Part shown: one piece after another, positions 5,701 through 42,700 of the stretch | Layout: each line of letters begins with the position of its first letter | Numbering within the stretch: the first letter of the stretch is position 1 | Virus record (IMG/VR): IMGVR_UViG_3300032326_000646 | Coordinates: 1-57,781 of that record | DNA length: 57,781 nt | From: a virus | Lineage: Duplodnaviria > Caudoviricetes | Direction: 5' to 3' (one strand) | Translations under genes and position numbers: made by a program | Notes under the pieces: model-generated | Told to the model about the DNA's origin: nothing | What the model saw: only the letters and a program-made list of their open reading frames with translations | The model's database searches: none

Positions 5701-6432
5701 ATGGCAGTTTCTAAATCTATGGATTTCCCAGGTGCAAAAAAATCTTCATATGCTGCACAGGTAGAACAAAGTCAGGCATCTCCTTCTACAGATAATGCTC
5801 TTTCATTTCTTCCAGTCCCTGGTCCAGTAGGACCACAGGGACCTGCAGGCAGAGACGGGAAGGATGGAAAAGAAGGACCTGAAGGACCAGAAGGACAAAA
5901 AGGACCAAGAGGAGAAAAAGGACAACCTGGACAAAACGGACTAAGTTCTTTATCATCTTCAGGACAGCAAGCAGGTTGGGCTTCATATACAAATGCTATT
6001 GAAAAACCAACAAAACTTGGAATCTCTCAGGGAGATGATGGTTGGGTAACACTTTTATTGGACACAAAAGATAAAGTACAAAATGAAAAATATCTTCCTA
6101 AAGGATGTACCAGCCTTTGGAACAGCCATCAAAGAGCCTTAAACTTTCACGGAATAAAAGAAGGTTCTCAAATATTCGTAACATATAACTTTGAACTAAC
6201 TACTTATACAGCCAACACCGAGGTATGGCTAAGAACATATTTTGCAAGTAAAGATCAAGAGTTTGTCCAATTAGTAGGATCTTTAAAGTACCAAAATGTA
6301 TACAATCTTTCAGTAACTCAAAACATATTCATTGAGGATAAGATTATGTGGGGTACTGGAGCAGTTCCTCAAATTAGAACAGATTTTGATGCATCTGTAA
6401 TTCTTAATTCTGTCTACGTCAGCGTGGTATAA
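5701..6432 (+). CDS. Collagen-like (Gly-X-Y) virion protein
   Basis: GPVGPQGPAGRDGKDGKEGPEGPEGQKGPRGEKGQPGQNG followed by a beta-sandwich-like C-terminus. Confidence 0.8.
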   Translation: MAVSKSMDFPGAKKSSYAAQVEQSQASPSTDNALSFLPVPGPVGPQGPAGRDGKDGKEGPEGPEGQKGPRGEKGQPGQNGLSSLSSSGQQAGWASYTNAIEKPTKLGISQGDDGWVTLLLDTKDKVQNEKYLPKGCTSLWNSHQRALNFHGIKEGSQIFVTYNFELTTYTANTEVWLRTYFASKDQEFVQLVGSLKYQNVYNLSVTQNIFIEDKIMWGTGAVPQIRTDFDASVILNSVYVSVV

Positions 6433-6439
6433 TAAAACC

Positions 6440-7213
6440 ATGGCATTTCCAGCGACCTATAATTTTAATTACTATAAGGGTGATACCTTTGAATTTCGTA
6501 TATATCCAAAAAAGAACGATGGAACAGCATACCTACTTGGAGACTTTACTGTTCCAACAAATTTTGCAAATAGCCCAGACTATGTTTTAGATACGTCTGC
6601 ACCTTACGATAGTGCTCAGTTTACTATTGCAAAGGCTAGAGGTCCAATAACTTCGTCTGCTCTGGTGGATCAGCCAATTAGATGTTTTGCTAGAATATCA
6701 GATGCTGGTACATTTGTACAGTGTGCAATTAGACCATCAGACTCTGCTACCCTGGTTCCTGGAACAGAATATGTGTATGATGTTGAAGTTAGATCTCCAG
6801 AAGGAACATATGATAATCCATTTTATGAAAAGGTTTATACCCTTATGACAGGAACTATAACAGTTACAGATCAGGTTACTGGAGCAAATGCAACTACTCG
6901 TGGAACGCTATCAAATTATAAGATATCTGGAGTAACTAAACCAGTTAAGGGGGGAACTCCAGTTACAGAAACTTTTACAACAGCAGAACATTCTGGAACT
7001 ATTTCTTGGTTTGAATCAAATGGGACTACACCTTTAGTTGGTAATTTTACTGCTTCTAAAGTTTATGTTGCAAAAATTACATTAACTATAAAGGATCCAT
7101 ATTCTATAAGTGGTACTCCAGCAAATAAATTTACAGTAGAACATGCAACACTTGTTACAAATGAAATAAATTCAGGAATAGTAACTGCAGTATTTCCTGC
7201 AACAGAGGCTTAG
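6440..7213 (+). CDS. BppU-N-like virion protein with C-terminal Ig-like domain
   Basis: YYKGDT...YVYDVEV...GTITVTDQVT, then GVTKPVKG...VTAVFPAT. Confidence 0.6.
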   Translation: MAFPATYNFNYYKGDTFEFRIYPKKNDGTAYLLGDFTVPTNFANSPDYVLDTSAPYDSAQFTIAKARGPITSSALVDQPIRCFARISDAGTFVQCAIRPSDSATLVPGTEYVYDVEVRSPEGTYDNPFYEKVYTLMTGTITVTDQVTGANATTRGTLSNYKISGVTKPVKGGTPVTETFTTAEHSGTISWFESNGTTPLVGNFTASKVYVAKITLTIKDPYSISGTPANKFTVEHATLVTNEINSGIVTAVFPATEA

Positions 7214-7215
7214 CA

Positions 7216-7815
7216 ATGGCAGATATACTTTTGTCTAATGAAGACCTTACAGTTTTTGGTGGACCAGAAACAATCAGTCTTGATTTAGATTTTGGACCAA
7301 CTGGTGATCGTGGAAGTATTATTATTGGTGTGCAAGGAGACCCAAGACAGTCTTCTGTTAATAATTTAATTTCTCAGGACATACAGGCACTTGATCTTGC
7401 AATTGACTATAGTCCAAGTTCTGAAACATATAAAACAATTTTTCAAAATGTAAAAATGCCAAACAATCAACTACAGTGGACTCCTCTTATTAGCCTAAAA
7501 ACAAATTTTTATTCAGAAACTAAAGGTCCACTAACACCAGTAAACGGGAAAATAGCCATTGCTCCAATAAACCTTTCAAGCATTTATAATTTATCAGAAG
7601 GAACAGTTACATCTTCAAGATTTAGTGTACAGTACTCTATTTCTTCGTCAGATAGCGCTGGTCCTTTAGCAACAAATCTAATTATAAAAGATTTAAATAC
7701 TTCTCAAGGATTTGTTGCGCTACCGCTTGAAATAGAAGGAATAGAATATCTAGAAGGAGCATGGGTGCCTATGACTGGGCCAAAGTATGTTCATCTTTTT
7801 ATTACGGTGGTATAA
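7216..7815 (+). CDS. Putative virion structural protein
   Basis: 199-aa ORF in the fibre cluster; DFGPTGDRGS motif. Confidence 0.55.
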   Translation: MADILLSNEDLTVFGGPETISLDLDFGPTGDRGSIIIGVQGDPRQSSVNNLISQDIQALDLAIDYSPSSETYKTIFQNVKMPNNQLQWTPLISLKTNFYSETKGPLTPVNGKIAIAPINLSSIYNLSEGTVTSSRFSVQYSISSSDSAGPLATNLIIKDLNTSQGFVALPLEIEGIEYLEGAWVPMTGPKYVHLFITVV

Positions 7816-7834
7816 TGAAAAAGGGTGATTTATA

Positions 7835-9298
7835 GTGGCAGCAGAAAATATTGATAATACCGTCAATGGTACTGGGCTATTCCCTACAAAAGTTCCTGGT
7901 CTTTCAGATGCAGCAGATATTCAGGCAGCACTAAGACTATATCATTATGGATCATACACCTATGATGGCTCCAACACCAACAAAGCAAATCTTGTAACAC
8001 CTTCTATTGCTAAACACCTGCAAAATCTTGCTGATGCAGATGCAGCAGAGATAGTAAATAGGAATACTGCTATTGCAAATGCAATTAGTACAGCAACAGG
8101 AGCATACTCAGACCTTGCTGGAAATGCTCTTGAATGGAATTCTGTTGATGAAAGATTTGATGTTGAGCCAAGAATTGCAAATACTGGAGTAGTTTTAACA
8201 AAAACAGCAAACTTTACTTTGTCTCCAAGCGATGTTGGTAAAACTATTCTTTTGTATTCTTCAGATCCTATGACTGTAACACTTCCAGCAAACAATTCAG
8301 TAGAAATTCCAGTAGGATACTCTGTTGATATAATTCAAACAGGTTCTGGATCAGTAACTGTTTCTGAAGGTAGTGTTGCTGTTTCAATTAATAGCAAATC
8401 TAACATAAAGTCTTTAGATGGTCAGTATTCAAAAGGAACTTTAGTCAAAATAGACACCAATACATGGTTTTTTTTTGGAAACTTACTTAACAGTGTAACA
8501 CCAACACCTACACCTGTAGCCCCTACACCAGTTGCACCTACCCCTGTAGCACCTACCCCTGTAGCACCTACCCCTGTAGCACCTACCCCTGTAGCACCTA
8601 CCCCTGTAGCACCTACTCCAGTTGCTCCAACACCTGTAGCACCTACACCAGTTTCTCCAACACCTACAGAAACAACAACATACTGGGCTACAGGTTGCTG
8701 TCTTGGAGCCACCACCAATCGTCAGGTAACTGGAACAAGTACTGAAAATGCTATTGCTGCTGGTGTCAATGTAATTAATGCTTGTAACGGTTCAGGAGAA
8801 AATCTTGGGACTGTTCAAGAAGGTTCGTATACAACAACTAACAACATACCTACTTTAACTTGTACAGCCCCTCCTACACCTGTAGGACCAACAGTTTATG
8901 ATATCTATACTTATTGTGATCCAATATTTCCTGCCATGAGAGGTGGAGCGTATGGAACCCAATCAGCAAGTTCAAGTGTTAATGTTGGAACAACAACTAA
9001 TGCATCCTTAACTAGTGAGCAGATAGTCGCTCTCCTTGGTTATGGATCTGGTTGTCCGACAGTTCCTACCCCTGTAGCACCTACCCCTGTAGCACCTACC
9101 CCTGTAGCACCTACCCCTGTAGCACCTACTCCAGTTGCTCCAACACCTGTAGCACCTACTCCAACTGCTCCTGTTCCAACTCCAGGCGGTGGATGTGTAC
9201 CAGGAGAACTTTGTTACTCTGAATTTGATGGAAGTTGTATTAGTATTTGGACATATAACTCATCTTGTGGATGTGTATTCTCTAGTAGAGTATGCTAA
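7835..9298 (+). CDS. Fibre-like protein with adaptor domain, (PTPVA)n proline-rich repeats and Cys-rich domains
   Basis: GTG start with AAGGGTGA SD; adaptor ending WFFFGNL; 9+6 PVAPT units; Cys clusters. Confidence 0.8.
   Translation: MAAENIDNTVNGTGLFPTKVPGLSDAADIQAALRLYHYGSYTYDGSNTNKANLVTPSIAKHLQNLADADAAEIVNRNTAIANAISTATGAYSDLAGNALEWNSVDERFDVEPRIANTGVVLTKTANFTLSPSDVGKTILLYSSDPMTVTLPANNSVEIPVGYSVDIIQTGSGSVTVSEGSVAVSINSKSNIKSLDGQYSKGTLVKIDTNTWFFFGNLLNSVTPTPTPVAPTPVAPTPVAPTPVAPTPVAPTPVAPTPVAPTPVAPTPVAPTPVSPTPTETTTYWATGCCLGATTNRQVTGTSTENAIAAGVNVINACNGSGENLGTVQEGSYTTTNNIPTLTCTAPPTPVGPTVYDIYTYCDPIFPAMRGGAYGTQSASSSVNVGTTTNASLTSEQIVALLGYGSGCPTVPTPVAPTPVAPTPVAPTPVAPTPVAPTPVAPTPTAPVPTPGGGCVPGELCYSEFDGSCISIWTYNSSCGCVFSSRVC
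8497..8667 (+). repeat. 15-bp coding tandem repeat (CCTACCCCTGTAGCA), block 1
   Basis: Nine PVA units plus one PVS unit. Confidence 0.95.
9065..9185 (+). repeat. 15-bp coding tandem repeat, block 2
   Basis: Six PVA units with the same synonymous variants as block 1. Confidence 0.95.
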
Positions 9299-9332
9299 CT
9301 ATGGTATACTAGTTTAAAAGAAAGGATTTATT

Positions 9333-9560
9333 ATGACAGAGTCAATCGGCGAACTTACAAACATGAAAACTTATGCCATTATTGTAGATGGAGAATTTGC
9401 TTGTGTTTTAAAAATGCCTTCATTGGGTCATCCAAAAGTAGAAATGATATCAGCGGCACTAAGTAGTAATCCAGTCGTTGTAGATATGACTGATGAAGAT
9501 TTTCCAGACGACGGTATTGGATGGGTTTGGAACGGTTATCAACTAGAAAAATCATTATAA
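9333..9560 (+). CDS. Small fibre-associated protein
   Basis: YAIIVDGE...GWVWNG pattern typical of small proteins following tail fibres; TGGTATACT plus AAAGGA SD. Confidence 0.55.
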   Translation: MTESIGELTNMKTYAIIVDGEFACVLKMPSLGHPKVEMISAALSSNPVVVDMTDEDFPDDGIGWVWNGYQLEKSL

Positions 9561-9563
9561 CTC

Positions 9564-9803
9564 GTGGGTGAAAAATTAACTCCCTGGGAACAATATAAAA
9601 AAAATCTTGGAGAAACAAGGCCTTGGGATATAATAAATCCATCAGTTATAAAATCTTCTGAAGAAGAATCTTTAAAAAGATATGAGATATGTAAGTCTTG
9701 TCCAGAATTAATAAAACTTACGTCTCAATGTAAAAAATGTGGATGCTTTATGAAAATAAAAACAACATTGGCAGCAGCAGAATGCCCATTAGGAAAATGG
9801 TAA
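9564..9803 (+). CDS. Small Cys-rich metal-binding protein (DUF6171-like)
   Basis: RYEICKSC...QCKKCGCFM...CPLGKW. Confidence 0.65.
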   Translation: MGEKLTPWEQYKKNLGETRPWDIINPSVIKSSEEESLKRYEICKSCPELIKLTSQCKKCGCFMKIKTTLAAAECPLGKW

Positions 9804-9804
9804 A

Positions 9805-10404
9805 ATGATAAAAGAAGAAATTGCTCCAGGAATAGTTGTTTACAGCAATGTCATTCCTAATAGTGAAAATCTATATAAAGATATAGAAGAGGGTTTAGTT
9901 TCAGCAAACCTTGAATGGCAACAGGCATCAGTTAAAGAAATAGATACTCCAAAGGTAAATACAAACACAAGAGATACGCATACTTTTGGTGTTGACTATT
10001 TGGGTAAAGTTGATGATAGCACTCCATTAAGTCTATCTGAGTTTTTCTTGTTAAGTCTTAATAATATTTTTTTTAAAAGTTTTGATCCAGTAGAAAAAGA
10101 CTACATGGCATCATATGCAATGTTTGCTGACTCTCATGACTCATATGGAATTTTAAAATACGGCAAAGGTCAAAAATTTACAAATCATATAGATGATCAT
10201 AAAGACTACCATAGAAGAGTTTCTACAGTTTATTATTTAAATGATAATTATAAAGGTGGAGAAATAAATTTTCCAAGATTTAATATAAAATTTAAACCAA
10301 AAGCAAATCAAATGATCATATTTCCATCAACATATGTTTATAATCATTCTGTAAGTGAAGTTACCGAAGGATTTAGATATGCTGTAGTTAGTTGGATGAA
10401 ATAA
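9805..10404 (+). CDS. 2OG-Fe(II) oxygenase, prolyl 4-hydroxylase-like
   Basis: HID (HxD), YLNDNYKGGEINF, distal NH and RYAVVSW. Confidence 0.9.
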   Translation: MIKEEIAPGIVVYSNVIPNSENLYKDIEEGLVSANLEWQQASVKEIDTPKVNTNTRDTHTFGVDYLGKVDDSTPLSLSEFFLLSLNNIFFKSFDPVEKDYMASYAMFADSHDSYGILKYGKGQKFTNHIDDHKDYHRRVSTVYYLNDNYKGGEINFPRFNIKFKPKANQMIIFPSTYVYNHSVSEVTEGFRYAVVSWMK

Positions 10405-11219
10405 TGAAAAATGCTATAGTCTATTCTATCAATGCAGTTGGAGAAAAATTTGAAAATTCTGTTAGATTTAGACAGTTGCTTTATTCTGTTTCAAGACTTA
10501 GGAGATTTAATAAAAATATAGATATCTATGCATATGTTTCAGATAAAGATTTTTTTTTGAATACAGAGAAATATAAAAATTTAAATATTATTTTTAAATA
10601 TTTTGAAATACCTATATATAATATATCAAATACTCATTACAGCAAATCAAACAATGCAGAAAAACTTTGGCATAGATGGTCAAACACTTTTGAAGTTTTA
10701 AAAAGTTCAGAATACGATAATGTTCTTTATATTGATACCGATACTGTTTTTTATAATGACCCAGAAATATTATTTTCAATTTACGGAAACACAAACTCTA
10801 TATACACTAAAGAAGACAATTGTTATGAGATTATGAACTCTTTGGGTGTAGATAAAAATGGGCTTAATGCTGGGCAGGTTTTGTTTAGTAAATCTTTGTT
10901 GTTTTCAGAATCTGGAATGTTTGAGTTTATGGATAACTATATAGACTTAAAATTAAAAGAAATAAGAACAACGATGCCAACAGAAATGTATCACCAGACC
11001 ATATGGGTTATTGATCAGTATGCTCTTTATGAATATTATAAATCTATAGATATTCCAGTTAAAATTTATGATAAAAAACATGTTATGTTGCACTTAGAGC
11101 CTTGGATAAATGAAACATCTGAATTAGTTTTACATCATTATTTAAATAGAAATTATAAGGTTGCAGTCCCAGCAGAGTTTGCTTATGATAATATCTTAGA
11201 AAGGATATTTCAAAAATGA
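10404..11219 (+). CDS. GT-A fold glycosyltransferase (GT8-like)
   Basis: YIDTD (DxD), LNAG, DQYAL, late HHY; TAATG-coupled to the oxygenase. Confidence 0.8.
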   Translation: MKNAIVYSINAVGEKFENSVRFRQLLYSVSRLRRFNKNIDIYAYVSDKDFFLNTEKYKNLNIIFKYFEIPIYNISNTHYSKSNNAEKLWHRWSNTFEVLKSSEYDNVLYIDTDTVFYNDPEILFSIYGNTNSIYTKEDNCYEIMNSLGVDKNGLNAGQVLFSKSLLFSESGMFEFMDNYIDLKLKEIRTTMPTEMYHQTIWVIDQYALYEYYKSIDIPVKIYDKKHVMLHLEPWINETSELVLHHYLNRNYKVAVPAEFAYDNILERIFQK

Positions 11220-11749
11220 AAGAATTTAAAGATTTTTTGCCAATTGATTTAGCAAAAAAATATTATAACTTTGGACTAGATGTTGTATCTGGTAGGTCTG
11301 GACTAAATTCTGTTTGGACAAACCAGGCTTGGGATAAAGGAATAGTAGAGGATAGTTCTGTAGTAGTGTGTATTAGACTTCCAGATGAGTTTTTACCTCA
11401 ACTACAATCAATTCTTGAGGATAAATTAATATTCGATAAAAATAGAGATATGCCATTAATCAGTTCAAGATCTGCAATGGTTTATGTTTGGTCAAAAGAC
11501 TCCTACATTCCAGTTCACTCAGACGGTGTATATAGTAGAGCCATTACTGTGTATTTAAATGAAACCTGGCAATATAATGATGGAGGAATGTTTAACTGGC
11601 TTGATCCAGAAAAGAATGAATGGAAAAACATTGAGCCAACATTTAATAAGGCCGTTATAAATGATTCAGGGTATTCCCATGGAATAACACCTGTAAAGTC
11701 ATCTAATAATAGAATAACCTTACAGGTGTTTTTAAGTCCGCTTACTTAG
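11216..11749 (+). CDS. Second 2OG-Fe(II) oxygenase, prolyl hydroxylase-like
   Basis: HSD, VYLNETWQYNDGG, SHGITPV, RITLQ. Confidence 0.88.
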   Translation: MKEFKDFLPIDLAKKYYNFGLDVVSGRSGLNSVWTNQAWDKGIVEDSSVVVCIRLPDEFLPQLQSILEDKLIFDKNRDMPLISSRSAMVYVWSKDSYIPVHSDGVYSRAITVYLNETWQYNDGGMFNWLDPEKNEWKNIEPTFNKAVINDSGYSHGITPVKSSNNRITLQVFLSPLT

Positions 11750-12305
11750 GAAATTTAGCCATCCAAGATTTGGTTCTTGGAGTAATGCCTTTCCACGAAG
11801 ACCAGTCTTCCCCACCGTTTGTCATATAGTATGCAATCTCTGCATTCTTTACGGGATTAAATAACTCAGCATTTGACTCAAGATCAAACTTAGTTCTTCT
11901 GTCAGGACCAAGGTCGTCAATCATATTAATTTGAAACATGCCGTAAGACGAGTCACCAGTCTTATGGTTTCCGTTAAAAGCCAATGGTCTTCCATTAGAT
12001 TCTTTTTTGGCTACTGCCCAAGCAACAACAAGGTCTTTACCCTTGAAGCCCACTAGCGAAAGCAGTTCCTTTAGTTCTAAATCAGTCAGAGAAACCTTGT
12101 TCTCAAAACTCTCTAGTTTTTTTGTCTTAGAAACCAAAAAAACCTCTTTCGAGGCGGTTTCCGATGTCTGAGCCTGTTCAAGGCTAAGGTTATTTTTCGT
12201 ACTTAGTTCTGGGGTAGCATTAGCAGCATTAGAAGATATTGCTACTAATAATACAATACTGAGTGTGCTAATGATCTCTTTGTTTCTTTCGATAAATTTA
12301 ATCAT
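11742..12305 (-). CDS. Exported lysozyme-like lytic transglycosylase (SLT family)
   Basis: N-terminal signal-like segment; catalytic ES (KKESNG), GMFQIN, WSSW; AAGGAGG SD before ATG 12305; TGTTATACT on the minus strand at 12354-12362. Confidence 0.85.
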   Translation of the reverse strand: MIKFIERNKEIISTLSIVLLVAISSNAANATPELSTKNNLSLEQAQTSETASKEVFLVSKTKKLESFENKVSLTDLELKELLSLVGFKGKDLVVAWAVAKKESNGRPLAFNGNHKTGDSSYGMFQINMIDDLGPDRRTKFDLESNAELFNPVKNAEIAYYMTNGGEDWSSWKGITPRTKSWMAKFPK

Positions 12306-12409
12306 AGTTTCCTCCTTAGAAAACAATAACACCCTGGTAGGTGTCTAATACCAAGTATAACATAAAATTTTATCAAAAGTCAACTTTAGATGGTGGTATA
12401 ATAAATTCT

Positions 12410-12949
12410 ATGCCTAACTCACCACTTAATTATCCTACTATGCAATATCCTCTTGCCTCAGACCCAGTTAATGTCCATGGAGATTTTAAGGTTTTAGTTG
12501 ACGCATTAACTAATATTTTACCACCACTAGGAATGACAAATTTTTCTTCAAAAGTTAAAAATAACTCTGGGGTTTCTTTAATTCCAGGAACTCCAGTATT
12601 TATTTCTGGAAGTTTATCTGGTTTACCAACGGTAGCAAAGTATAATCCATCAAGCCCTACACATAACCCAGATGTACCAATTCTTGGAGTTGTTCAAAGT
12701 ACCATAGAAAATAATGCAGAGGGCGTTGTTATCGTGTCTGGTGTTTTACAAATGAATTTAACAGGAATTGCTTCTACAGTAGGTGCAAAAATTTATGTTA
12801 ATGATAGTGGAAATCTTGTAGAAGGTCGCCCATTGACTGGTCCAGCAAGATATATTGCAGTAGTTGCAAACTTAGGCCAACAGGGTTTGCTGATTGTTCA
12901 AGCAAAAGGAAACGGTACTTGGGGTGCACTCAAAGACGGTTTATCGTGA
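12410..12949 (+). CDS. Virion protein (capsid-cement/DUF2190-like beta fold)
   Basis: GTPVFISG...GVVIVSGVL...GAKIYV; leaderless ATG 12410. Confidence 0.55.
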   Translation: MPNSPLNYPTMQYPLASDPVNVHGDFKVLVDALTNILPPLGMTNFSSKVKNNSGVSLIPGTPVFISGSLSGLPTVAKYNPSSPTHNPDVPILGVVQSTIENNAEGVVIVSGVLQMNLTGIASTVGAKIYVNDSGNLVEGRPLTGPARYIAVVANLGQQGLLIVQAKGNGTWGALKDGLS

Positions 12950-12961
12950 TATAATAACATT

Positions 12962-13378
12962 ATGGCAACTTTAAGAGGATCTCAAACATTATACGACATA
13001 GGAAATAAACCACCTACAGTTATTTGGACTGTTGTTCGTGGAGATACTTCTGGTTTTAAGGTTTATGTAACTGATGATGCTAAAGAGCCACTAATTCTAA
13101 AAGGTGAAGGATCTGAGTGGGATATTTCAATGAAGATCAAAAGACCAACACTTGAAAAAGACAAAGGAATTATTACTGATAACGCAACAACAATAATGGC
13201 ATTACATCCAGTTGCAGACGAAGATGATCTGGTCGGAGAATTTACAGTTTGGCTTACAGCAGAAGAATCTAATGTCTTGCAGACAGGAGACATCTTTGAT
13301 ATTCAGGTTAGCGACCCAACAAGAGTCTGGACAGTTTGCCAGGGTAGCATGAAGATTCTTGAAGATGTAACAGATTAA
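12962..13378 (+). CDS. BppU-N-like virion protein
   Basis: VVRGDT...FDIQV...GSMKILEDVT. Confidence 0.6.
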   Translation: MATLRGSQTLYDIGNKPPTVIWTVVRGDTSGFKVYVTDDAKEPLILKGEGSEWDISMKIKRPTLEKDKGIITDNATTIMALHPVADEDDLVGEFTVWLTAEESNVLQTGDIFDIQVSDPTRVWTVCQGSMKILEDVTD

Positions 13379-36775: not shown

Positions 36776-39700
36776 ATGGCTGATGTTCAATCCAATATTC
36801 ATGTAAATATTGATACGTCTGATGCTTTAGCAAGTCTAAAACTTCTGCAACGTCAAATATCAGCCTTCCATACACAAATGGCAAAGTCTGGTACCGCAGC
36901 AGCAGCGGTATCTGCAAATCAAGCACAAAACTTGATGAACGCAATAAATGCTACTGGACAATTCCAAGCATCTATGCAAAAGGTAACAACAAGCACAGAG
37001 CATTTTACTGATGCGTTAGAACGTAACAAATTAACATCCAGAGAATATTTTAGATATACTGGAGCAGCCACAAAGACCTTCGGAAGACTATTTAAGTCTG
37101 AGTTCGAGACAATCAACAAGGTTGCACGAGAGCGTGTAAAAGATATTCAGACACAGTATATCAAACTGGGTCGTGGTGCTAATGGTGCACTAGAAGCAAT
37201 TGCTGTAAGACCTCTTACCCTTGACATGAAAAATTTGGGTACTCAAACAGCCATCGCAGCACAAAGACAACAACTATTAAATCAACTATTAAAGCAAGGA
37301 TCAACAAACCTTCTAAACTTTGGTAAGAATACTCAGTGGGCTGGTCGTCAGTTGATGGTTGGTTTTACAATTCCATTGGCAATGCTTGGAGCCCAGGCTT
37401 CAAAAACATTTATGCAGATGGAAGAGCAAGCAATTAGATTTAAGCGTGTGTATGGAGAACTCTTTACCACTCAAGAAGAAACAGACGCAATGGTCAAGCA
37501 GATTCAGACTCTTGCAAAAGAATACACTAAGTACGGTGTAGCGGTAGAAGAAACAATGAAAATGGCTGCAGATGCAGCAGCAATGGGTAAGATGGGTGCA
37601 GAATTAACTGCACAAGTTGCACAGGCTACTAGACTTGCAGTTCTTGGTGGTGTTGAACAAGCCCAGGCCTTAGAAACAACCATATCAGTAACAAATGCAT
37701 TTGGTGTTGCAACAGAAGATTTAGCAAAAAAGATTGACTTCCTCAACGCAGTTGAAAACCAGACAGTTGTATCTATTGAAGATTTAACAGTTGCAATTCC
37801 AAAGGCTGGCCCAGTTGTGCAACAACTTGGTGGAGATGTAGAAGATTTAGCATTCTTCCTTACAGCAATGAAAGAAGGTGGAATCAATGCATCAGAAGGT
37901 GCTAACGCACTCAAGTCTGGTCTTGCATCTTTAATTAACCCATCTGAAAAAGCATCAAAATTCTTAGGAAATCTTGGAGTTAATATCCGTGGAATTGTTG
38001 AAGCAAACAAGGGAGATATTAAAGCAACAGTTGTTGGATTTTCAAAGGCATTAGACACACTAGATCCACTTAACCGTGCTCGTGCTATTGAGCAGTTATT
38101 TGGAAAGTTCCAGTTCTCAAGATTATCTACACTATTTCAAAACGTAGCAGCAGAAGGCACACAAGCACAAAGAGTTTTAGGACTAACAAAAGCAACTACA
38201 GAAGAACTTGCAATTTTGTCACAACGAGAATTAGACAAGATAGAAAACACCACTACCTATAAGTTTAAAAAGTCAATGGAAAATCTTAAGGTTGCTCTTG
38301 CCCCAGTTGGAGAGCAGTTCTTAAAGGCTCTTACTCCTATTGTTGAATTTGTTGGAAAGATACTTGATAAGTTTAATAATCTTGGCGATGGAACTAAAAA
38401 GTTTATAACTATATTTACTGTTGCAGTTGCAGGTATTGGTCCAGTTCTTTTGATGACATTTGGTTTGATAGCAAATGCTGCTGCTAATATAATTAAACTA
38501 TTTGCAAGTATGAAGTCTATGTACAATAGAACTGGAAATGCAAGTACAGTTTTAGGAGAACAAACAAATTATTTAACTAAGGAGCAGATAGAAGCATCAG
38601 CCGTTGCAGCATCACTTGATCAAGTTCATCAAAAACTTAGACAAACATTTACATCTGAAACAACTGCAGTCAACTCTCTTGCAGCAGCATACAGAAGAGC
38701 AATCGCAGCCCAAGCAGGATTTACTGGTCCAGTTAGGGGCGCTGGAAAAGCCCCTGGTTTAAAGAAGTATTCAACAGGAACTACAGAAGTTCCAGGAAGT
38801 GGAAGCAGAGATACAGTACCAACAATGCTAACTCCTGGAGAAGCCGTTATCCCAGCACGGGCAGCACAAGATCCAGCAAATAGGCCAATGATTGCACAGT
38901 TAGTCGCAGGGAAAAAGGTTCAAGGATTTAACACAGGAACAACTGGAGTAACACAAAGTGGAGAAACACAAAAAACACACGTAGGTGGAAAGAGTGAGCA
39001 AAAACTAATTTCCGACATCCTCAAGAATAATCCTTTTATGGGAGATGATCAAAAAGCCAAATTAAGAGCGCTTGAGGCAATTTTAAAATCACAAGGCCTT
39101 CCACCAACAACTGCAACACTACATAAGTTAATGTTTACATTCCCAGCATCAATGAACATGTCAATGAGTGCTGGTGTTGGAATTCCTGCTCAAAACTTTA
39201 TAGATGCTTGGGATAAGTTAGGACCAAATAAGTGGGAAGCATCTAAGATCGCTGGCCCAGTTGCGGATCCTTTTGATAGAGCAATGATAGATATGATCAA
39301 AAAAGATTTGGCAGATAAAAAAATAACACATGTCAATGATGATTATGTTAAAGATATATTTACAAAAAGAATCCCAGCAGAACGACCAGATATTGCAAAA
39401 ACTGCTGGGTATAGTCAAGCAGAAAAACTATACAACACCTCTACACAATTTTTGCTTGGAAAGGGACTAGGAAATACTCCAGAAGAAAGCACAAGAATTT
39501 TACAAGATGCAGTAAAGAAAGGCGCTATAAAAAGTTTTACTCTTGAGTCAAGAGAAGGAACTGGAAAAACAAACAAGGGTAAAATTGTAACTGGATCAGC
39601 CACAGTAACCTTAAATGATGGAACAGTTGTAAATATGAATCGTCTCGGTTCTGGTCATAGAGTAAACATCAGCCAAGACGAAAAAAGCCAAGAAAGAAGT

Positions 39701-42700
39701 AATGCAGCAGCAGCAAGAGCAAGAGCAAAAGCAATAGCAAAAAGAGCAGCAGATGTACCAAGTCAATCAAAAATGACAGTTCTAGAACGTGTTGCTGCAG
39801 CAGCAGAAAAAACAGTATCTGGAAAACTTCCTGCCACCGACTTTGGAAAACAACTTGCCTCTTCATCTGGTTATAGTTTTAAAGAAGCCTCTTTCATGGG
39901 CGGTCTTTATGAAAAGTCTAATGGCAAAAAAGTATTTGTAAAGCCAATGATGAGTGAACTAGACGCTATAGCAGAAAAAAGAGCAACAGACTTTGCTAGA
40001 AAAGTTCAAGGACTTGATACGCCAGAGCAAAACATTAAAACAATGATTGATCCTTCAGATCCAGAAGGTAAAAGAAAGATAATTGTTTTGGAATCTCCCT
40101 TTAATGAAAGGTTTAGTACAAAAAATATTCCAAAGACATTTACTCAGGCAGAATATTTTACACAGTTAGTCGCAGCAAATCTTCGTGGAGATAAAGATCT
40201 TAAGGCAGGAAATCTCGGTGGAAATGTCATGACAGACGGAGGCACCATGGGTGTCTTTGATAAAGCCTCTGGAGATAGAAGCCTTTCAAAAAAGATGCCA
40301 TCGCTAGAGCAAATGGCAGAAGAAAACCTAAAGGGGCTTCCAGAAAAAAGCAAAGGAAACCCACAAAATTCCCCTAACTGGTTTGCAAATGCAACTAAAG
40401 ATATTGCTTTAAATTTAAAACCAGATCAATACGATAAGGCTATGAAAGATGAAATCAAAAGACAGATTGAACTTATGGTTCCTTATGTAAAAGGCATGCC
40501 TAACAATGATCCGCTAAAACCTTACTACACCAAGATGTTAGCAAGACTTAGAGCAGGACTAAAGGTTGACTGGAAGAGACTACATCAAAAGCATAGTAGT
40601 ATTCTGGTAAAACCTGATGAAGTTCTTGAAGATAAAGATGGTAACATCAAGAAAATACCTACAGAGCCAAATAACGGCAAATTTAAATCTGACTCAGGCA
40701 TAAAAGATACAAGAATTGCTTCAAAGGAAGTTGAGTCATCAGTCCGTCAAAGACCTAGACTGCGTGGAAAATCAGATGCTCCAAAAGCAAGTATTGATAT
40801 TTCAGAACAAGAACTTGCTCGCACAGCACCAAGGGGTATAAAAAGAATAGTAGATCCAGTAGGAGCAGTAGTTGCTGGAGCAAAGACTTCTATAGCAGAA
40901 GCAAAGTCAGTTGGAAGTACAATTGGAACAACATTGTCTCAATCTGCAGCAGCAGCCTCAAGAACAATGCTGTACGGTACTGGACCAGTAGATGCTGATG
41001 CAAAGTCTGTACGTAGACAACTAGAAAAGCGACAAAGAGCGCAAGCAAAAACACAAGCAAAGGCAGCAGCATCAAGAACTGCTCTTTATGGCACGGGGCC
41101 TGTAGATGCAGATGCAAAGTCTATGAGACGTAATGCAGAAAAAGAAATGAAGAGAAGTAAGTTAGCAGAAAAGGTAGCCTACCAACAATCAATTATTGAT
41201 CAAAGAGCAGCAGAAGAAGCAAAGAAAAGAACTCCTACAGGGAGAATCAAAACATTTGTAGAAAATAGACAAGCAAAAAGACAAGCAAGAATAGATGCAG
41301 GCAAGCGCCCAGGAATGGGAATGACTGGAGCAGCAGGTGTTGCAGCAGGTGCAGCAATGCTTGGCTCAATGGCACCAGGAAAAGTTGGAGAGATTTCACA
41401 AAAAGTAATGATGCCACTTATGGGTCTTTCCATGGTGCTTCCAATGCTAAAGAGCCCTATGGGGGCTGTTGCAGTTGGCCTTGCAGCAACCGTTGGAGCA
41501 TTTGTTGCTTTAAGAATGGCTTTTGATAAAGCAGCAAATAAGGTTCTAGAGGAAAATGAAAAGTTTAGAGGATCCACTTCTGCAATAAATTCAATTGCAA
41601 AGTTTAGTGGCAAAGTAACAGCATCAGAGCAGATGGACTTAAGAAGAAAAAATTCCTTTTCAATGCTTGGGCCAGCAAGAGGTAAAACAACTTATGGAGA
41701 AGCATTTATTCAGACAGCAGAAGGAAAAGATTTAACAAAGCGAATTTCAGAACAAAATGCTGCAGGTAAGGGTGGAGAGGCAGCAAAAGATTTAAGTGGA
41801 CAGTTAACTGCATCAATAATGTCTGGTGCAATTGATATGAGTCAAGCAAAAAGTTTAGCCATGAATGCTGCTAGACAGGCTGGAGATATGTCAATAGGTA
41901 TTAGAGTAATTGCTCAAATGGAATCACTCCTTGGTCCAAATGGAGAAAAACTTGATCAAGAACCATTAAAGGTTAGAATGAATATGATTTCTGAAAATTC
42001 TAAGAATATGCAAGGCAGTCTTAAAAATATTCAAAATGCTAATCCAATAACAAAACTTGCTGGACAAAAGACAATGCAAAAAGTTGGCATTGGTGCCACT
42101 GCAGCAGCAGGAGCAACTGTCGGCGCAGTCCTTGGTTCAATTGTTCCTGGGGTTGGAAATGTTGTTGGAGCAATTATTGGTGGTGGCATCGGCGCAGCAG
42201 CGGGAGCAATTGGTGGATACTTTGCATCGCAAAAGTTTGTAAAGCAAGCAGGAGCACTTGGAGCAGCCTATGCAGTAGATGCTAAGATTGCAATGGAACA
42301 AAACAAGCAAATGCTAGACTCATTTGATATGTACTATCAAAAGAAAATTGAAGAATTAAGGCTACAAGGAAAAATAAATGAAGCCAATGAAATGCAAACA
42401 AAATATATTAAAGAGAGAGATGAGTTAACCGCTGCTCAAGGTCAATTGCAAGGCAATATTGTTTCACAATACAATTCTGCTGGAGGTCTTCAAGAATCAA
42501 TGATGAGCGGTATGAAGAAGGCCGCAACCGCAAGATACAAGAATGATCCAAATCAATTAGCATATCTTGATGTTGTTAATCAACAAGCAGGGGATCTTAG
42601 AAAAGATGGACTTATTAGTAGTGGTCAAGAATTTTTAATTCAGGCAAAGATGGCAAGTGGAGATATTCCTCCAGCAGTGTTTAGATCACTTCTAGGTTTG

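Follow-up and report, generated by a model that had tools for sequence, protein, structure and literature searches.

A candidate hydroxylation and O-glycosylation island beside a (PTPVA)n-bearing, fibre-like gene of a freshwater phage

The fibre module and its gene order

The window, that is, the entire 57,781-nucleotide stretch of DNA analysed here, is half of an approximately 110-kb siphovirus, a freshwater bacteriophage. Its relatives are actinophages, with whiB found in five of five complete relatives' genomes and with Streptomyces phages supplying the nearest matches to the window's portal. Within the window lies a fixed backbone that is common to hundreds of related contigs, consisting of a collagen-like gene (5701–6432; Pfam PF01391, E 5.9e-8), two further genes, a fibre-like gene, a DUF6171 gene, a variable island, and then a lysozyme-like gene. 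The last of these (11742–12332; PF18896, E 3.8e-16), whose SLT_3 product has a hydrophobic anchor at its N-terminus, with hydropathy peaking at 1.70 (aa 20), forms the right-hand border of the variable island. It is found on the minus strand; all other features described here are found on the plus strand.

The fibre-like gene (7835–9298) starts with GTG and encodes 487 aa. A conserved N-terminal domain (aa 1–220) is followed by two PTPVA linker arrays which part small Cys-bearing modules, with all 12 of the protein's cysteines located in its C-terminal half, i.e., between and after those arrays. PHROG minor-tail and tail-fibre families match aa 71–218 (E 1e-7 to 8e-9), and it is from these matches only that the label 'fibre-like' derives. 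There are, as initially counted, exactly 15 PTPVA units, nine at aa 225–269 and six at aa 411–440. Tandem Repeats Finder places the corresponding DNA arrays, which have a 15/30-bp period and 86–90% matches, at 8505–8665, coding for (PTPVA)9 along with degenerate ends, and at 9065–9171, coding for (PTPVA)6. Across loci the N-terminus of the fibre is conserved while its C-terminus is hypervariable. The fibre in some relatives is divided over two genes.

The first-pass annotation placed this protein in an 'extensin-like' pathway, a label that is incorrect because the PTPVA repeat is of the AP/TP type, i.e., Ser-Pro(3-5) blocks are absent and the repeat provides instead non-contiguous Ala-Pro and Thr-Pro dipeptides. 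Judged by its sequence, the repeat appears to be closer to AGP glycomodules, as AP/TP dipeptides are described in PMC7427127, or to bacterial PT linkers, than it is to extensin.

Coupled enzyme genes are indeed found downstream of the fibre gene, but not directly so as had been claimed, with a 75-aa ORF and the DUF6171 gene intervening. The 75-aa ORF (9333–9560), of unknown function, has no match in Pfam or PHROG; homologues occupy the same position in eight sources, window included, of the ox1-anchored set. The DUF6171 product (9564–9803) matches PF19668 at 29.1 bits (cut-off 27) and displays the pattern CxxC-x9-CxxCxC-x12-C, the six cysteines of which are invariant in 32 sequences. Of the 65 sources made up by the ox1-anchored loci and the window, 53 have this gene, as do 55 of the 88 non-redundant groups anchored on SLT, and it stays beside the fibre gene even where no enzyme comes after. 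Among the 120 longer homologues listed are 18 fusions of DUF6171 with GT60, two with PF13640, and one with a GNAT, and the DUF6171–ox1 pair is tandemly duplicated in two loci (L082 and L085).

The DUF6171 stop is located 1 nt ahead of the ATG of a first oxygenase gene, ox1 (9805–10404). The ox1 stop in turn overlaps, as TAATG, the start of a glycosyltransferase (GT) gene (10404–11219), for which ATG 10404, the start originally assigned, is the conserved one. The GT stop then overlaps, as ATGA, the ATG of a second oxygenase gene, ox2 (11216–11749). These four genes form one start-to-stop coupled block inside the virion-fibre module, and the four island proteins of the window are soluble, having no TM segments.

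Oxygenase and glycosyltransferase families

Both oxygenases had been called prolyl-hydroxylase-like, and both do fall, by profile and model matches, within the protein prolyl-hydroxylase branch of the 2OG-Fe(II) oxygenases. The P4H-type ox1 matches PF13640 (E 1.7e-18, 67.8 bits) and possesses the conserved HxD...H...R arrangement that had been noted, as HID at 128–130, H181, and R191, with H128, D130, and H181 invariant in 38 relatives. Its profile, when compared with solved structures, matches 58 sequences at E<=0.1, all of them either protein prolyl/lysyl hydroxylases or PiuC-type enzymes, with neither AlkB nor TET among them. The B. anthracis P4H is the best of these matches (3e-11), followed by PiuC, PHD2, P3H1, and the PBCV-1 and Chlamydomonas P4Hs. 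The nearest cultured homologue is a cyanophage gene (31.6% identity) that is located in a non-structural region.

The PHD-type ox2 also matches PF13640 (E 3.7e-9), and its HSD at 101–103, H155, and R166, in agreement with the motif as first read, are all invariant in 50 sequences. Down to rank 50, the Foldseek matches listed for the ox2 structure model (pLDDT 96.8) are all PHD-type prolyl hydroxylases, and the best structural matches are Pseudomonas PPHD (VIA Z 18.0), Trichoplax PHD, Dictyostelium PhyA (Z 16.0), and PHD2. Further matches include OGFOD1 (Z 15.2) and the PBCV-1 P4H (Z 14.9), with AlkB homologues ranking below the prolyl hydroxylases, and with PolD, PasI, and EvdO2, which are 2OG oxygenases acting on nucleoside or sugar natural products, found at lower ranks. 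Elsewhere, members of the ox2 family occur in fusions with GT25 and with a sulfotransferase.

That the third enzyme is a DxD glycosyltransferase is borne out by a DTD at 115–117 (numbering of the TTG-start ORF) that is invariant in 32 homologues. Its match to Pfam GT8, at 20.4 bits, is below the cut-off of 24.3. From its structure model (pLDDT 92), however, it can be assigned with confidence a predicted GT-A, GT8-like fold, consistent with a retaining enzyme, with LARGE1, WbbM, UGGT, GlyE, LgtC, glycogenin, and XXYLT1 as Foldseek neighbours (TM 0.47–0.58). One homologue is named by its source as an LPS-biosynthesis glycosyltransferase. In relatives the island GT is most often GT60 (PF11397, E 6.7e-21), which the window lacks. 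Characterised GT60 members are described in PMC6939170 as adding GlcNAc to the hydroxyproline of Skp1, following PhyA, or to T. cruzi mucin polypeptide.

Island content and linker type among relatives

Relatives were collected by anchoring on the lysozyme (SLT) gene rather than on an oxygenase, giving 240 loci, 125 of which had the fibre N-terminus, and these reduced to 88 non-redundant groups. An oxygenase (ox1, ox2, or c3) and a PT-type linker of at least 100 aa are found together in 35 groups and are both missing from 45; five groups that possess an oxygenase have no long PT linker, and three PT-rich groups lack an oxygenase (Fisher 1.5e-15). The definitions of the linker classes (F/Y filter, thresholds) were adjusted once a first sample had been viewed. 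The association is stable at linker thresholds of 50 to 200, and it also holds in the 55 groups bearing DUF6171 (33/3/3/16, p 2.5e-8). Counted by island architecture, fibres are solely PT-rich in 23 of 27 architectures with an oxygenase versus 3 of 12 without. As the ox1-anchored set supplied the sequences for the enzyme HMMs, the 28 groups which lack an annotated island may contain other enzymes that these HMMs miss.

Thr-rich fibres are accompanied by GT60 without an oxygenase, and two minimal pairs can be drawn. That is, DUF6171–rSAM–GT60–epimerase islands occur with Thr-rich fibres (four groups), and the same island with ox1 added occurs with a PT-rich fibre; likewise DUF6171–GT60 occurs with Thr-rich fibres (three groups), and with ox1 or c3 added occurs with PT-rich fibres (five groups). 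Fibres with YSFTP or PPFFPP repeats have neither oxygenase nor GT60 (six of six). The islands of relatives also hold NAD-dependent epimerase/dehydratases and a radical SAM/SPASM enzyme, along with one ORF resembling a nucleotidyltransferase and one resembling a methyltransferase.

Under phylogenetic control, using those branches of the lysozyme tree that have support, the oxygenase–linker association is not significant (median p 0.25); only six independent pairs are left, of which 3.4 change in the same direction, 0.2 in the opposite direction, and 2.4 not at all. Fibre and island are adjacent, and they may travel as a single recombination cassette without there being a substrate relation between them.

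Candidate pathway, known systems, and alternatives

In relatives, island make-up tracks fibre-repeat chemistry, which is suggestive of a phage decorating its own fibre chemically. Our preferred reading, to which we assign a probability of roughly 0.55, is that 9564–11749 is a swappable cytoplasmic island which would hydroxylate and O-glycosylate the linkers of the upstream fibre (7835–9298). Late in infection, the soluble P4H- and PHD-type oxygenases would hydroxylate prolines in the (PTPVA)n linkers, and the GT8-like transferase would then transfer hexose onto Hyp and/or neighbouring Thr, using a host NDP-sugar as donor. The small, six-Cys DUF6171 protein may be an accessory, adaptor, or targeting module for whichever enzyme comes after. 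The product could be a stiffened, protease-resistant, glycan-coated spacer on which the fibre's small Cys-bearing modules are held outward. The sequences themselves show the enzyme families, their catalytic residues, the coupling of the genes, the variability of the island, and the statistical agreement of enzyme set with linker chemistry; substrate, modified residue, sugar, and DUF6171 role are here what we infer from family membership and co-occurrence. A hydroxylation and glycosylation pathway is what the first-pass annotation had proposed, and enzyme families, gene coupling, fibre-module location, oxygenase–linker tracking, and the GT60 of relatives are consistent with that proposal, its 'extensin-like' qualifier excepted.

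The Skp1 pathway of Dictyostelium and Toxoplasma (PhyA, Gnt1/GT60, and later GTs) is similarly cytoplasmic and soluble, consisting of a PHD-type prolyl 4-hydroxylase, the Dictyostelium version of which is matched by the ox2 model, followed by glycosyltransferases, and GT60/PF11397 genes occur in the island's relatives. According to PMC6939170, the Gnt1 acceptor must be a hydroxylated proline. That pathway, however, addresses one proline of one regulatory protein, whereas the candidates here are tens of prolines located in a virion protein's repeat linkers. The window, in addition, has a GT8-like enzyme rather than GT60, the island genes belong to phages, form a cluster, and are exchanged as cassettes, and DUF6171 has no counterpart in the Skp1 pathway. 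We know of no GT8 enzyme that starts a glycan on Hyp.

The PBCV-1 P4H (vCPH, PDB 5c5t) too is a virus-encoded, small, monomeric P4H and, as had been claimed of it, acts on proline-rich repeats, specifically non-collagen Pro-Ala-Pro-Lys repeats as described in PMC3634087. It is matched by the ox1 profile (8.8e-5) as well as by the ox2 model, but PBCV-1 is a eukaryotic virus, and B. anthracis P4H and PHD-type enzymes rank above its P4H as relatives. To our knowledge, no GT or adaptor gene is found beside it. Freeman et al., in 2023, reportedly described virion O-glycosylation of mycobacteriophages by phage glycosyltransferases, with GT genes located near structural genes, which is a likeness given that the window's relatives are actinophages. 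The targets there are said to be capsid and tail-tube extensions rather than PT-repeat fibres, with no hydroxylases involved; DUF6171 is absent, and we know of no description of cassette-by-linker matching for that system. In plant and algal HRGPs (extensins, AGPs), P4H hydroxylation of Pro-rich repeats precedes O-glycosylation on Hyp, and the ox1 profile matches the Chlamydomonas P4H (1.2e-4). These glycoproteins are made, though, in the secretory pathway, using GT31/GT95-type Hyp transferases which are absent from the island, and the comparison implies no substrate homology. Human LH3 and mimivirus L230, which are weak matches of the ox1 profile (7e-4 and 1.2e-3), likewise couple 2OG hydroxylation of a repeat protein to a subsequent GT step, and the ox2 family includes a GT25–PF13640 fusion, but LH3 and L230 are fused enzymes acting on lysine, not proline, and on collagen.

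The oxygenases and GT might instead act on host factors or on other virion proteins, with PT linkers as unmodified spacers and with co-occurrence a product of cassette linkage and shared ancestry. Pseudomonas PPHD, the best structural match of ox2, acts on EF-Tu, and OGFOD1/Tpa1, also near, on a ribosomal protein. The complete relatives carry 1, 10, 9, 10, and 6 PF13640 genes, in one case including paralogues in early and DNA-metabolism regions with no fibre adjoining, and because of such numbers and locations the family has other targets too. The cyanophage homologue is likewise in a non-structural region. This possibility, which also accommodates the non-significance under phylogenetic control, we consider to be unlikely but worth keeping in view. 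Host-takeover enzymes would not be expected to change with the linker chemistry of a neighbouring fibre, the island is within the fibre module and coupled to a DUF6171 gene that persists there, and the presence in this slot of GT60, from a polypeptide-transferase family, and of sugar-nucleotide genes is indicative of glycoprotein synthesis. Rather less likely still is that the island remodels a host surface glycan, or that its product is a small molecule or an altered sugar (e.g., for superinfection exclusion or receptor masking), with the oxygenases acting on sugars or metabolites. The additional enzymes of relatives' islands, the LPS-biosynthesis name of one GT homologue, LgtC and WbbM among GT8 neighbours, and PolD, PasI, and EvdO2 could all be so read. 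The solubility of all four proteins and the peptidyl-proline substrates of the top relatives of both oxygenases argue otherwise, however, and both the enzyme-set/linker match and the DUF6171–GT60 fusion would be left unexplained.

The collagen-like protein had been offered as an alternative substrate, and the gene is only three genes upstream while the closest solved relative of ox1, the B. anthracis P4H, acts on collagen-like peptides. That gene nevertheless is present as well where no oxygenase follows, in the three loci examined (L068, L138, and L142), and therefore does not co-vary. Pro is in the Y position, the position hydroxylated by collagen P4Hs according to PMC12433258 and PMC12525012, in just one of 14 G-X-Y triplets (versus six Pro in X), all of which makes this substrate very unlikely. 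Even more improbable is DNA hypermodification of a TET/JBP type, i.e., base oxidation by an oxygenase followed by glycosylation by the GT, which had been put forward as the main alternative. Oxygenase-plus-GT pairs do serve this way in some phages, the PHROG families matched by ox1 and ox2 are labelled 'DNA endonuclease', and ox1 has a weak Tet_JBP match. That match, though, is sub-threshold (14.1 bits versus 34.9), and Tet_JBP is above cut-off in none of five genomes. Nucleic-acid oxygenases, moreover, are missing from the 58 solved relatives of ox1 and outranked among those of ox2, the genes are in a fibre module rather than beside replication genes, and the GT60 of relatives belongs to a polypeptide-transferase family.

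If linker hydroxylation and O-glycosylation by the island is indeed what occurs, then exchanging the cassette along with linker type would alter the virion surface of these phages.

The putative fibre gene and the enzymes encoded behind it

The ORF at 7835-9298 encodes a putative fibre in which the first-pass annotation had counted 15 repeat units. Exactly 15 PTPVA units are indeed present, in two arrays of 9 and 6, with tandem arrays at 8505-8665 and 9065-9171 matching these blocks at the DNA level. All 12 cysteines of this ORF sit in small modules that the PTPVA arrays set apart. A Pfam search with it gave no match, and residues 71-218 match tail-fibre and minor-tail proteins in PHROG (E = 1e-7 to 8e-9), a resemblance, to the ends of such proteins, seen at the PHROG level only. 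The description of the repeat as ‘extensin-like’ has to be given up, as Ser-Pro(3-5) repeats and contiguous proline runs are both absent from this fibre, the repeat being PTPVA. That is, (PTPVA)15 gives alternating AP and TP, i.e., non-contiguous Ala-Pro, Thr-Pro, and Val-Pro in PAST-rich sequence, as in AGP-like proteins and PT linkers (the AGP glycomodule being taken as defined in the excerpted text of PMC7427127). The likeness to AGP glycomodules and bacterial PT linkers is one of AP/TP pattern, hence of composition only.

Found 3' of the fibre gene are a 75-aa ORF (9333-9560), a DUF6171 gene (9564-9803), a first oxygenase gene (ox1; 9805-10404), a glycosyltransferase gene (GT; 10404-11219), a second oxygenase gene (ox2; 11216-11749), and a convergent lysozyme-like SLT_3 gene (11742-12332, minus strand). 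The DUF6171 stop lies 1 nt ahead of the ox1 ATG. Coupling of the enzyme genes, as had been claimed, is seen in the GT ATG at 10404, which overlaps the ox1 stop, and in the ox2 ATG, which overlaps the GT stop; the lysozyme-like gene overlaps ox2 by 8 nt. The SLT_3 protein has a hydrophobic N-terminal segment (maximum hydropathy 1.70 at residue 20), possibly a signal-anchor of the sort found in secreted endolysins. No membrane segment is predicted for ox1, GT, ox2, or DUF6171.

Both oxygenases match PF13640 (67.8 bits for ox1 and 37.9 bits for ox2, with a gathering cut-off of 27), and the HxD...H...R motifs noticed earlier are conserved in both. Thus, H128, D130, and H181 of ox1 are invariant in 38 sequences, with R191 either R or K, and H101, D103, H155, and R166 of ox2 are invariant in 50. 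The 38-sequence ox1 profile has as its best structure match the B. anthracis P4H (3e-11), followed by PiuC-type hydroxylases, PHD2, P3H1, the PBCV-1 and Chlamydomonas P4Hs, LH3, and mimivirus L230. With ox2, single-sequence and profile searches of the PDB returned only matches of E > 0.1, and with the GT nothing meaningful; both proteins therefore were folded. The ox2 predicted structure (pLDDT 96.8) resembles PPHD, PHD2, and PhyA (TM 0.62-0.71, Z 15-18), with PPHD best at Z 18.0, a Trichoplax PHD at 17.1, and Dictyostelium PhyA at 16.0; beyond these the list shades without a break into other 2OG oxygenases, AlkB homologues reaching at most Z 13.9. The closest solved relatives of both enzymes, for ox1 by profile and for ox2 by model, consequently are peptidyl-prolyl hydroxylases, in keeping with the earlier designation of prolyl-hydroxylase-like, and ox1 and ox2 are predicted to be prolyl hydroxylases of the P4H/PHD branch of 2OG-Fe(II) oxygenases. 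The ox2 family also includes fusions (P0148, P0081, P0079, P0122) to GT25, sulfotransferase, thioredoxin, and luciferase-like monooxygenase domains. The collagen hydroxylysine galactosyltransferase belongs to GT25.

The GT scores 20.4 bits against PF01501 (GT8), under the gathering cut-off of 24.3, and only one of 36 homologues has a precomputed PF01501 match. Its model (pLDDT 92) displays a GT-A fold and its DTD is invariant, and the enzyme is a DxD glycosyltransferase as first proposed. Foldseek neighbours are LARGE1, WbbM, GlyE, LgtC, glycogenin, and XXYLT1, at E = 3e-9 to 1e-7, as well as UGGT, with TM of only 0.47-0.58, and by its model the GT appears nearest to retaining GT8-type transferases. 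These neighbours are split between enzymes of protein-linked glycans (GlyE, glycogenin, XXYLT1, UGGT, LARGE1) versus LPS (LgtC, WbbM).

Island contents and linker types among relatives

Related loci were gathered as 63 viral contigs with ox1 relatives, two loci found via the GT, and the window, for a total of 66 sources without dereplication, all but one with an ox1 relative. A constant backbone is seen consisting of a collagen-like gene, two further genes, the fibre N-terminus, DUF6171 (in 53 of the 65), ox1, and finally the lysozyme gene. Freely variable are the C-terminal part of the fibre and the 0.5-4.6 kb from ox1 to the lysozyme gene. Periodic proline runs of at least 44 residues are present in the fibre region of all 37 ox1-anchored loci which include a fibre N-terminus.

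The commonest island gene in these relatives encodes a 185-aa family, c3 (39 sources), followed by GT60 (PF11397, E = 6.7e-21; cluster c4, 31 sources), a NAD-dependent epimerase/dehydratase (c5, 17), the window's GT (c6, 16), a 339-aa family lacking a Pfam match (c7, 11), the window's ox2 (c8, 9), and a second epimerase/dehydratase family (c18, 4). Rarer are JmjC/cupin and radical SAM/SPASM genes along with weak methyltransferase and sulfotransferase matches. The c3 family probably is a divergent oxygenase: Its HxD...H pattern is conserved and among named Atlas clusters those of PF13640 come nearest (0.90-0.92), with hhalign probabilities of 9.5% to ox2 and 0.1% to ox1. Three island families of 280-340 aa, c7 (L004 7163-8182 and relatives), c11, and c13, have no Pfam match and share by eye an N-terminal G-x-x-(G/F)-N-(Q/R) motif which we take to resemble that of fucosyltransferase-type enzymes; searched against the PDB, the c7 profile has POFUT2 (protein O-fucosyltransferase 2) as its top match, which is not significant (E = 0.16).

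GT60 had no match in the window itself and none in the PDB, and is found in 31 of the 65 ox1-anchored sources as well as in 20 of 88 groups of a second, lysozyme-anchored sample. According to the excerpted text of PMC6939170, Gnt1, which adds GlcNAc to the PhyA-made hydroxyproline of Skp1, belongs to CAZy family GT60, as does the T. cruzi polypeptide GlcNAc-transferase.

As the first set was picked via ox1, relatives were resampled via the lysozyme gene, using three divergent queries of 80 loci each (240 in total), of which 125 have a fibre N-terminus, forming 88 non-redundant groups. At least four linker chemistries are found: Pro-rich (PT, PTPVA, TPAV, and the like), poly-Thr, YSFTP-type aromatic, and PPFFPP. 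An initial proline-run expression, P-x(1,2), missed (TPAV)n and counted PPFF, and window-based classes were used instead. Counting c3 along with ox1 and ox2 as oxygenase, and setting PT-type linker at 100 residues or more, 35 groups have both, five have an oxygenase only, three a linker only, and 45 neither (Fisher p = 1.5e-15), with linker classes having been adjusted once the first sample had been seen. Thresholds of 50-200 residues always yield p below 1e-11, PT coverage has a median of 231 residues in oxygenase-bearing groups versus 22 in the others, and leaving out c3 gives, in the same order, 21, 5, 17, and 45 (p = 4.9e-6). For the 55 groups with DUF6171 the counts are 33, 3, 3, and 16. 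By linker class, PT-type fibres are accompanied by an oxygenase in 33 of 36 cases, Thr-type fibres by GT60 without an oxygenase in seven of nine, and YSFTP or PPFFPP fibres by oxygenase or GT60 in none of six.

Across 39 island architectures, fibres are exclusively PT-rich in 23 of the 27 with an oxygenase versus three of the 12 without, and one and the same island is found with a PT-rich fibre when ox1 is present and with a Thr-rich fibre when it is not. Along the lysozyme tree, the two traits switch often (20 and 15 changes). Supported branches supply only six independent contrasts, of which approximately 3.4 agree in direction, 0.2 run counter, and 2.4 are unchanged (median p = 0.25). Fibre and island adjoin, hence they may recombine jointly. 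The enzyme HMMs were built from the first set, and the 28 groups without an annotated island therefore may hide unrecognised enzymes.

Fibres of these relatives vary in other ways as well. In L004, L009, L010, L027, and L057 the fibre is split into an approximately 255-aa N-terminal protein ending in ...SKFA and a separate PT-rich protein beginning MSPLFRN(P)S.IGIFL (in L009 a GTG start, MPLFRN...), with an RBS-like purine stretch preceding the second gene in four of these five. Programmed frameshifting was considered and rejected, as the junction in all five is a stop, a spacer, and the start codon (ATG save in L009) of the second gene. Aromatic YSFTP/YTFTPTA linkers occur in L068, L083, L138, L158, L173, L176, L189, L224, and L226; downstream of these fibres are neither oxygenase nor recognised GT (GT60, GT8-like), with L138 having only c13. 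PPFFPPFFPP runs, for which we know of no counterpart, lie near the C-termini of many fibres (e.g., L135, L149, L150, L219), with as many as 30 PFFP/PPFF motifs in a single fibre. Several fibres finish with an approximately 150-aa stretch, starting with Cys and ending in HN plus Ser or Lys (ORFs L068 8427-9695, L138 3690-5276, and L079 3566-6481, on reversed copies), which by its appearance may be a Hint/intein-like autoprocessing domain.

DUF6171, the probable host, and paralogous oxygenases

DUF6171 (79 aa) scores 29.1 bits against PF19668, with a cut-off of 27, and its six cysteines are invariant in 32 sequences. It adjoins the fibre even where no enzyme gene comes after, and in two groups is duplicated together with ox1. 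Among 120 longer homologues listed, 18 have DUF6171 fused N-terminally to GT60/PF11397 (e.g., the approximately 400-aa ORFs after the fibre in L097, L098, and L135; proteins P0187-P0243), two have a PF13640 fusion (P0190, P0210), P0202 a GNAT domain, and P0255, weakly, a sulfotransferase. We read DUF6171, as judged from these associations, as an accessory or targeting module of modifying enzymes. Complex predictions with ox1 gave 0.64, 0.00, and 0.00 over three runs, with the median under the mark, which speaks neither for nor against binding. An Atlas search with DUF6171 returned its own family only, and no paper on it was found among the open-access articles searched. In several other homologues DUF6171 is C-terminal to unknown domains, and a second copy is found elsewhere in the genome (complete relatives G001-G005; L308-L311).

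The window is the whole IMG/VR record, 57,781 bases and an estimated 53% complete. It encodes a siphovirus-type set (portal, head protease, major head protein, and minor tail proteins), upstream of whose portal and head genes the fibre module lies, as well as a DnaB-like helicase, a primase, and a ribonucleotide reductase. The 2,930-aa tape measure protein (36776-45568) implies a very long tail. A DNA similarity search of 7000-13000 against a phage collection gave zero matches, and each anchor search yielded more than 590 related contigs, i.e., the lineage is abundant. The portal's nearest matches are from Streptomyces phages of approximately 130 kb (48.6% identity over 95%), and whiB is present in all five complete relatives (109-122 kb); the host therefore is probably an actinobacterium. 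Within the window, which is half a genome, whiB is absent. A G+C content as low as 30-43% would be in line with a low-GC freshwater lineage as host.

PF13640 genes number 1, 10, 9, 10, and 6 in the five complete relatives, the genome with just one being that with a YSFTP fibre and no island. G002 carries five consecutively, just before the ribonucleotide reductase gene and after two further fibre-like ORFs; other paralogues are found in the company of early genes close to whiB or precede a large unannotated 596-aa ORF. Clearly this family has more than one role in these phages. In the phage collection, 266 records match, almost all of them cyanophages. In Synechococcus phage S-MbCM7 (L312, KF156338.1 35553-50071), two annotated 2OG-Fe(II) oxygenases directly follow the gp12 short tail fibre gene, and the closest ox1 homologue adjoins two genes labelled ‘DNA endonuclease V’. 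As both ox1 and ox2 match PHROG 274, which is likewise so labelled, oxygenase paralogues may have been given that label wrongly.

Candidate substrates and their implications

What had been observed at first pass thus stands, while its interpretation is supported in part and is recast here as a cassette model, without the extensin label. We propose, as based on sequence, that the fibre linkers are the target of the island enzymes, at a probability of roughly 0.55. Under the fuller mechanism, a slot of constant position, downstream of a fibre gene that is itself hypervariable, would receive cassettes fitting the linker's chemistry, with Pro-rich linkers calling for prolyl hydroxylases, Thr-rich linkers for GT60 without a hydroxylase, and aromatic repeats for nothing, and with the six-Cys adaptor DUF6171, often fused to enzymes, recruiting the cassettes. 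This joint picture, of linker-matched cassettes in a fixed slot, a DUF6171 adaptor, and a Hyp/Thr O-glycosylated fibre in freshwater actinophages, is tentative and rather doubtful as a whole.

The strongest rival is hydroxylation by island oxygenases of host proteins, since ox2 bears its strongest resemblance to the EF-Tu hydroxylase and the genome has paralogues at scattered places. Given sugar-nucleotide genes in the islands and LPS-type neighbours of the GT, chemistry on surface glycans or metabolites is possible as well. Modification of the collagen-like protein at 5701, suggested earlier as an alternative substrate, fares worse, for it does not come and go with the oxygenases and has a single Y-position proline. 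Least supported among rivals is DNA hypermodification, previously the main alternative: Against TET/JBP (PF12851) the ox1 region scores 14.1 bits with a cut-off of 34.9, none of five genomes passes that cut-off, and the 58 sequences matched by the ox1 profile include no AlkB or TET enzymes.

Fibre-linker modification would have precedents. Closest in biological setting is mycobacteriophage virion glycosylation, reportedly described by Freeman in 2023. The cytoplasmic PhyA/Gnt1 pathway of Skp1 is closest in working logic, and the PBCV-1 P4H, which per the excerpted text of PMC3634087 hydroxylates Pro-Ala-Pro-Lys repeats, is closest in substrate type. Searches of open-access main texts yielded nothing relevant to the hydroxylation of virion prolines by phage enzymes. 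Hydroxyproline, to our knowledge, is generally considered absent from the proteins of bacterial viruses.

The island system is abundant and testable. If the proposal is true, the fibre would be the first bacteriophage virion protein with hydroxylated prolines and O-glycans on Hyp/Thr, and the island's enzymes would be compact, soluble means of putting Hyp and O-glycans on designed PT linkers. A eukaryote-like Hyp-glycoprotein pathway would be operating in the bacterial cytoplasm, swapped in cassette form together with the receptor-binding fibre, and would bear on the host range of virions and on their immune or protease resistance. It would also supply a function for some of the many 2OG-Fe(II) oxygenases of aquatic phages, cyanophages included, whose expansion has long lacked an explanation.
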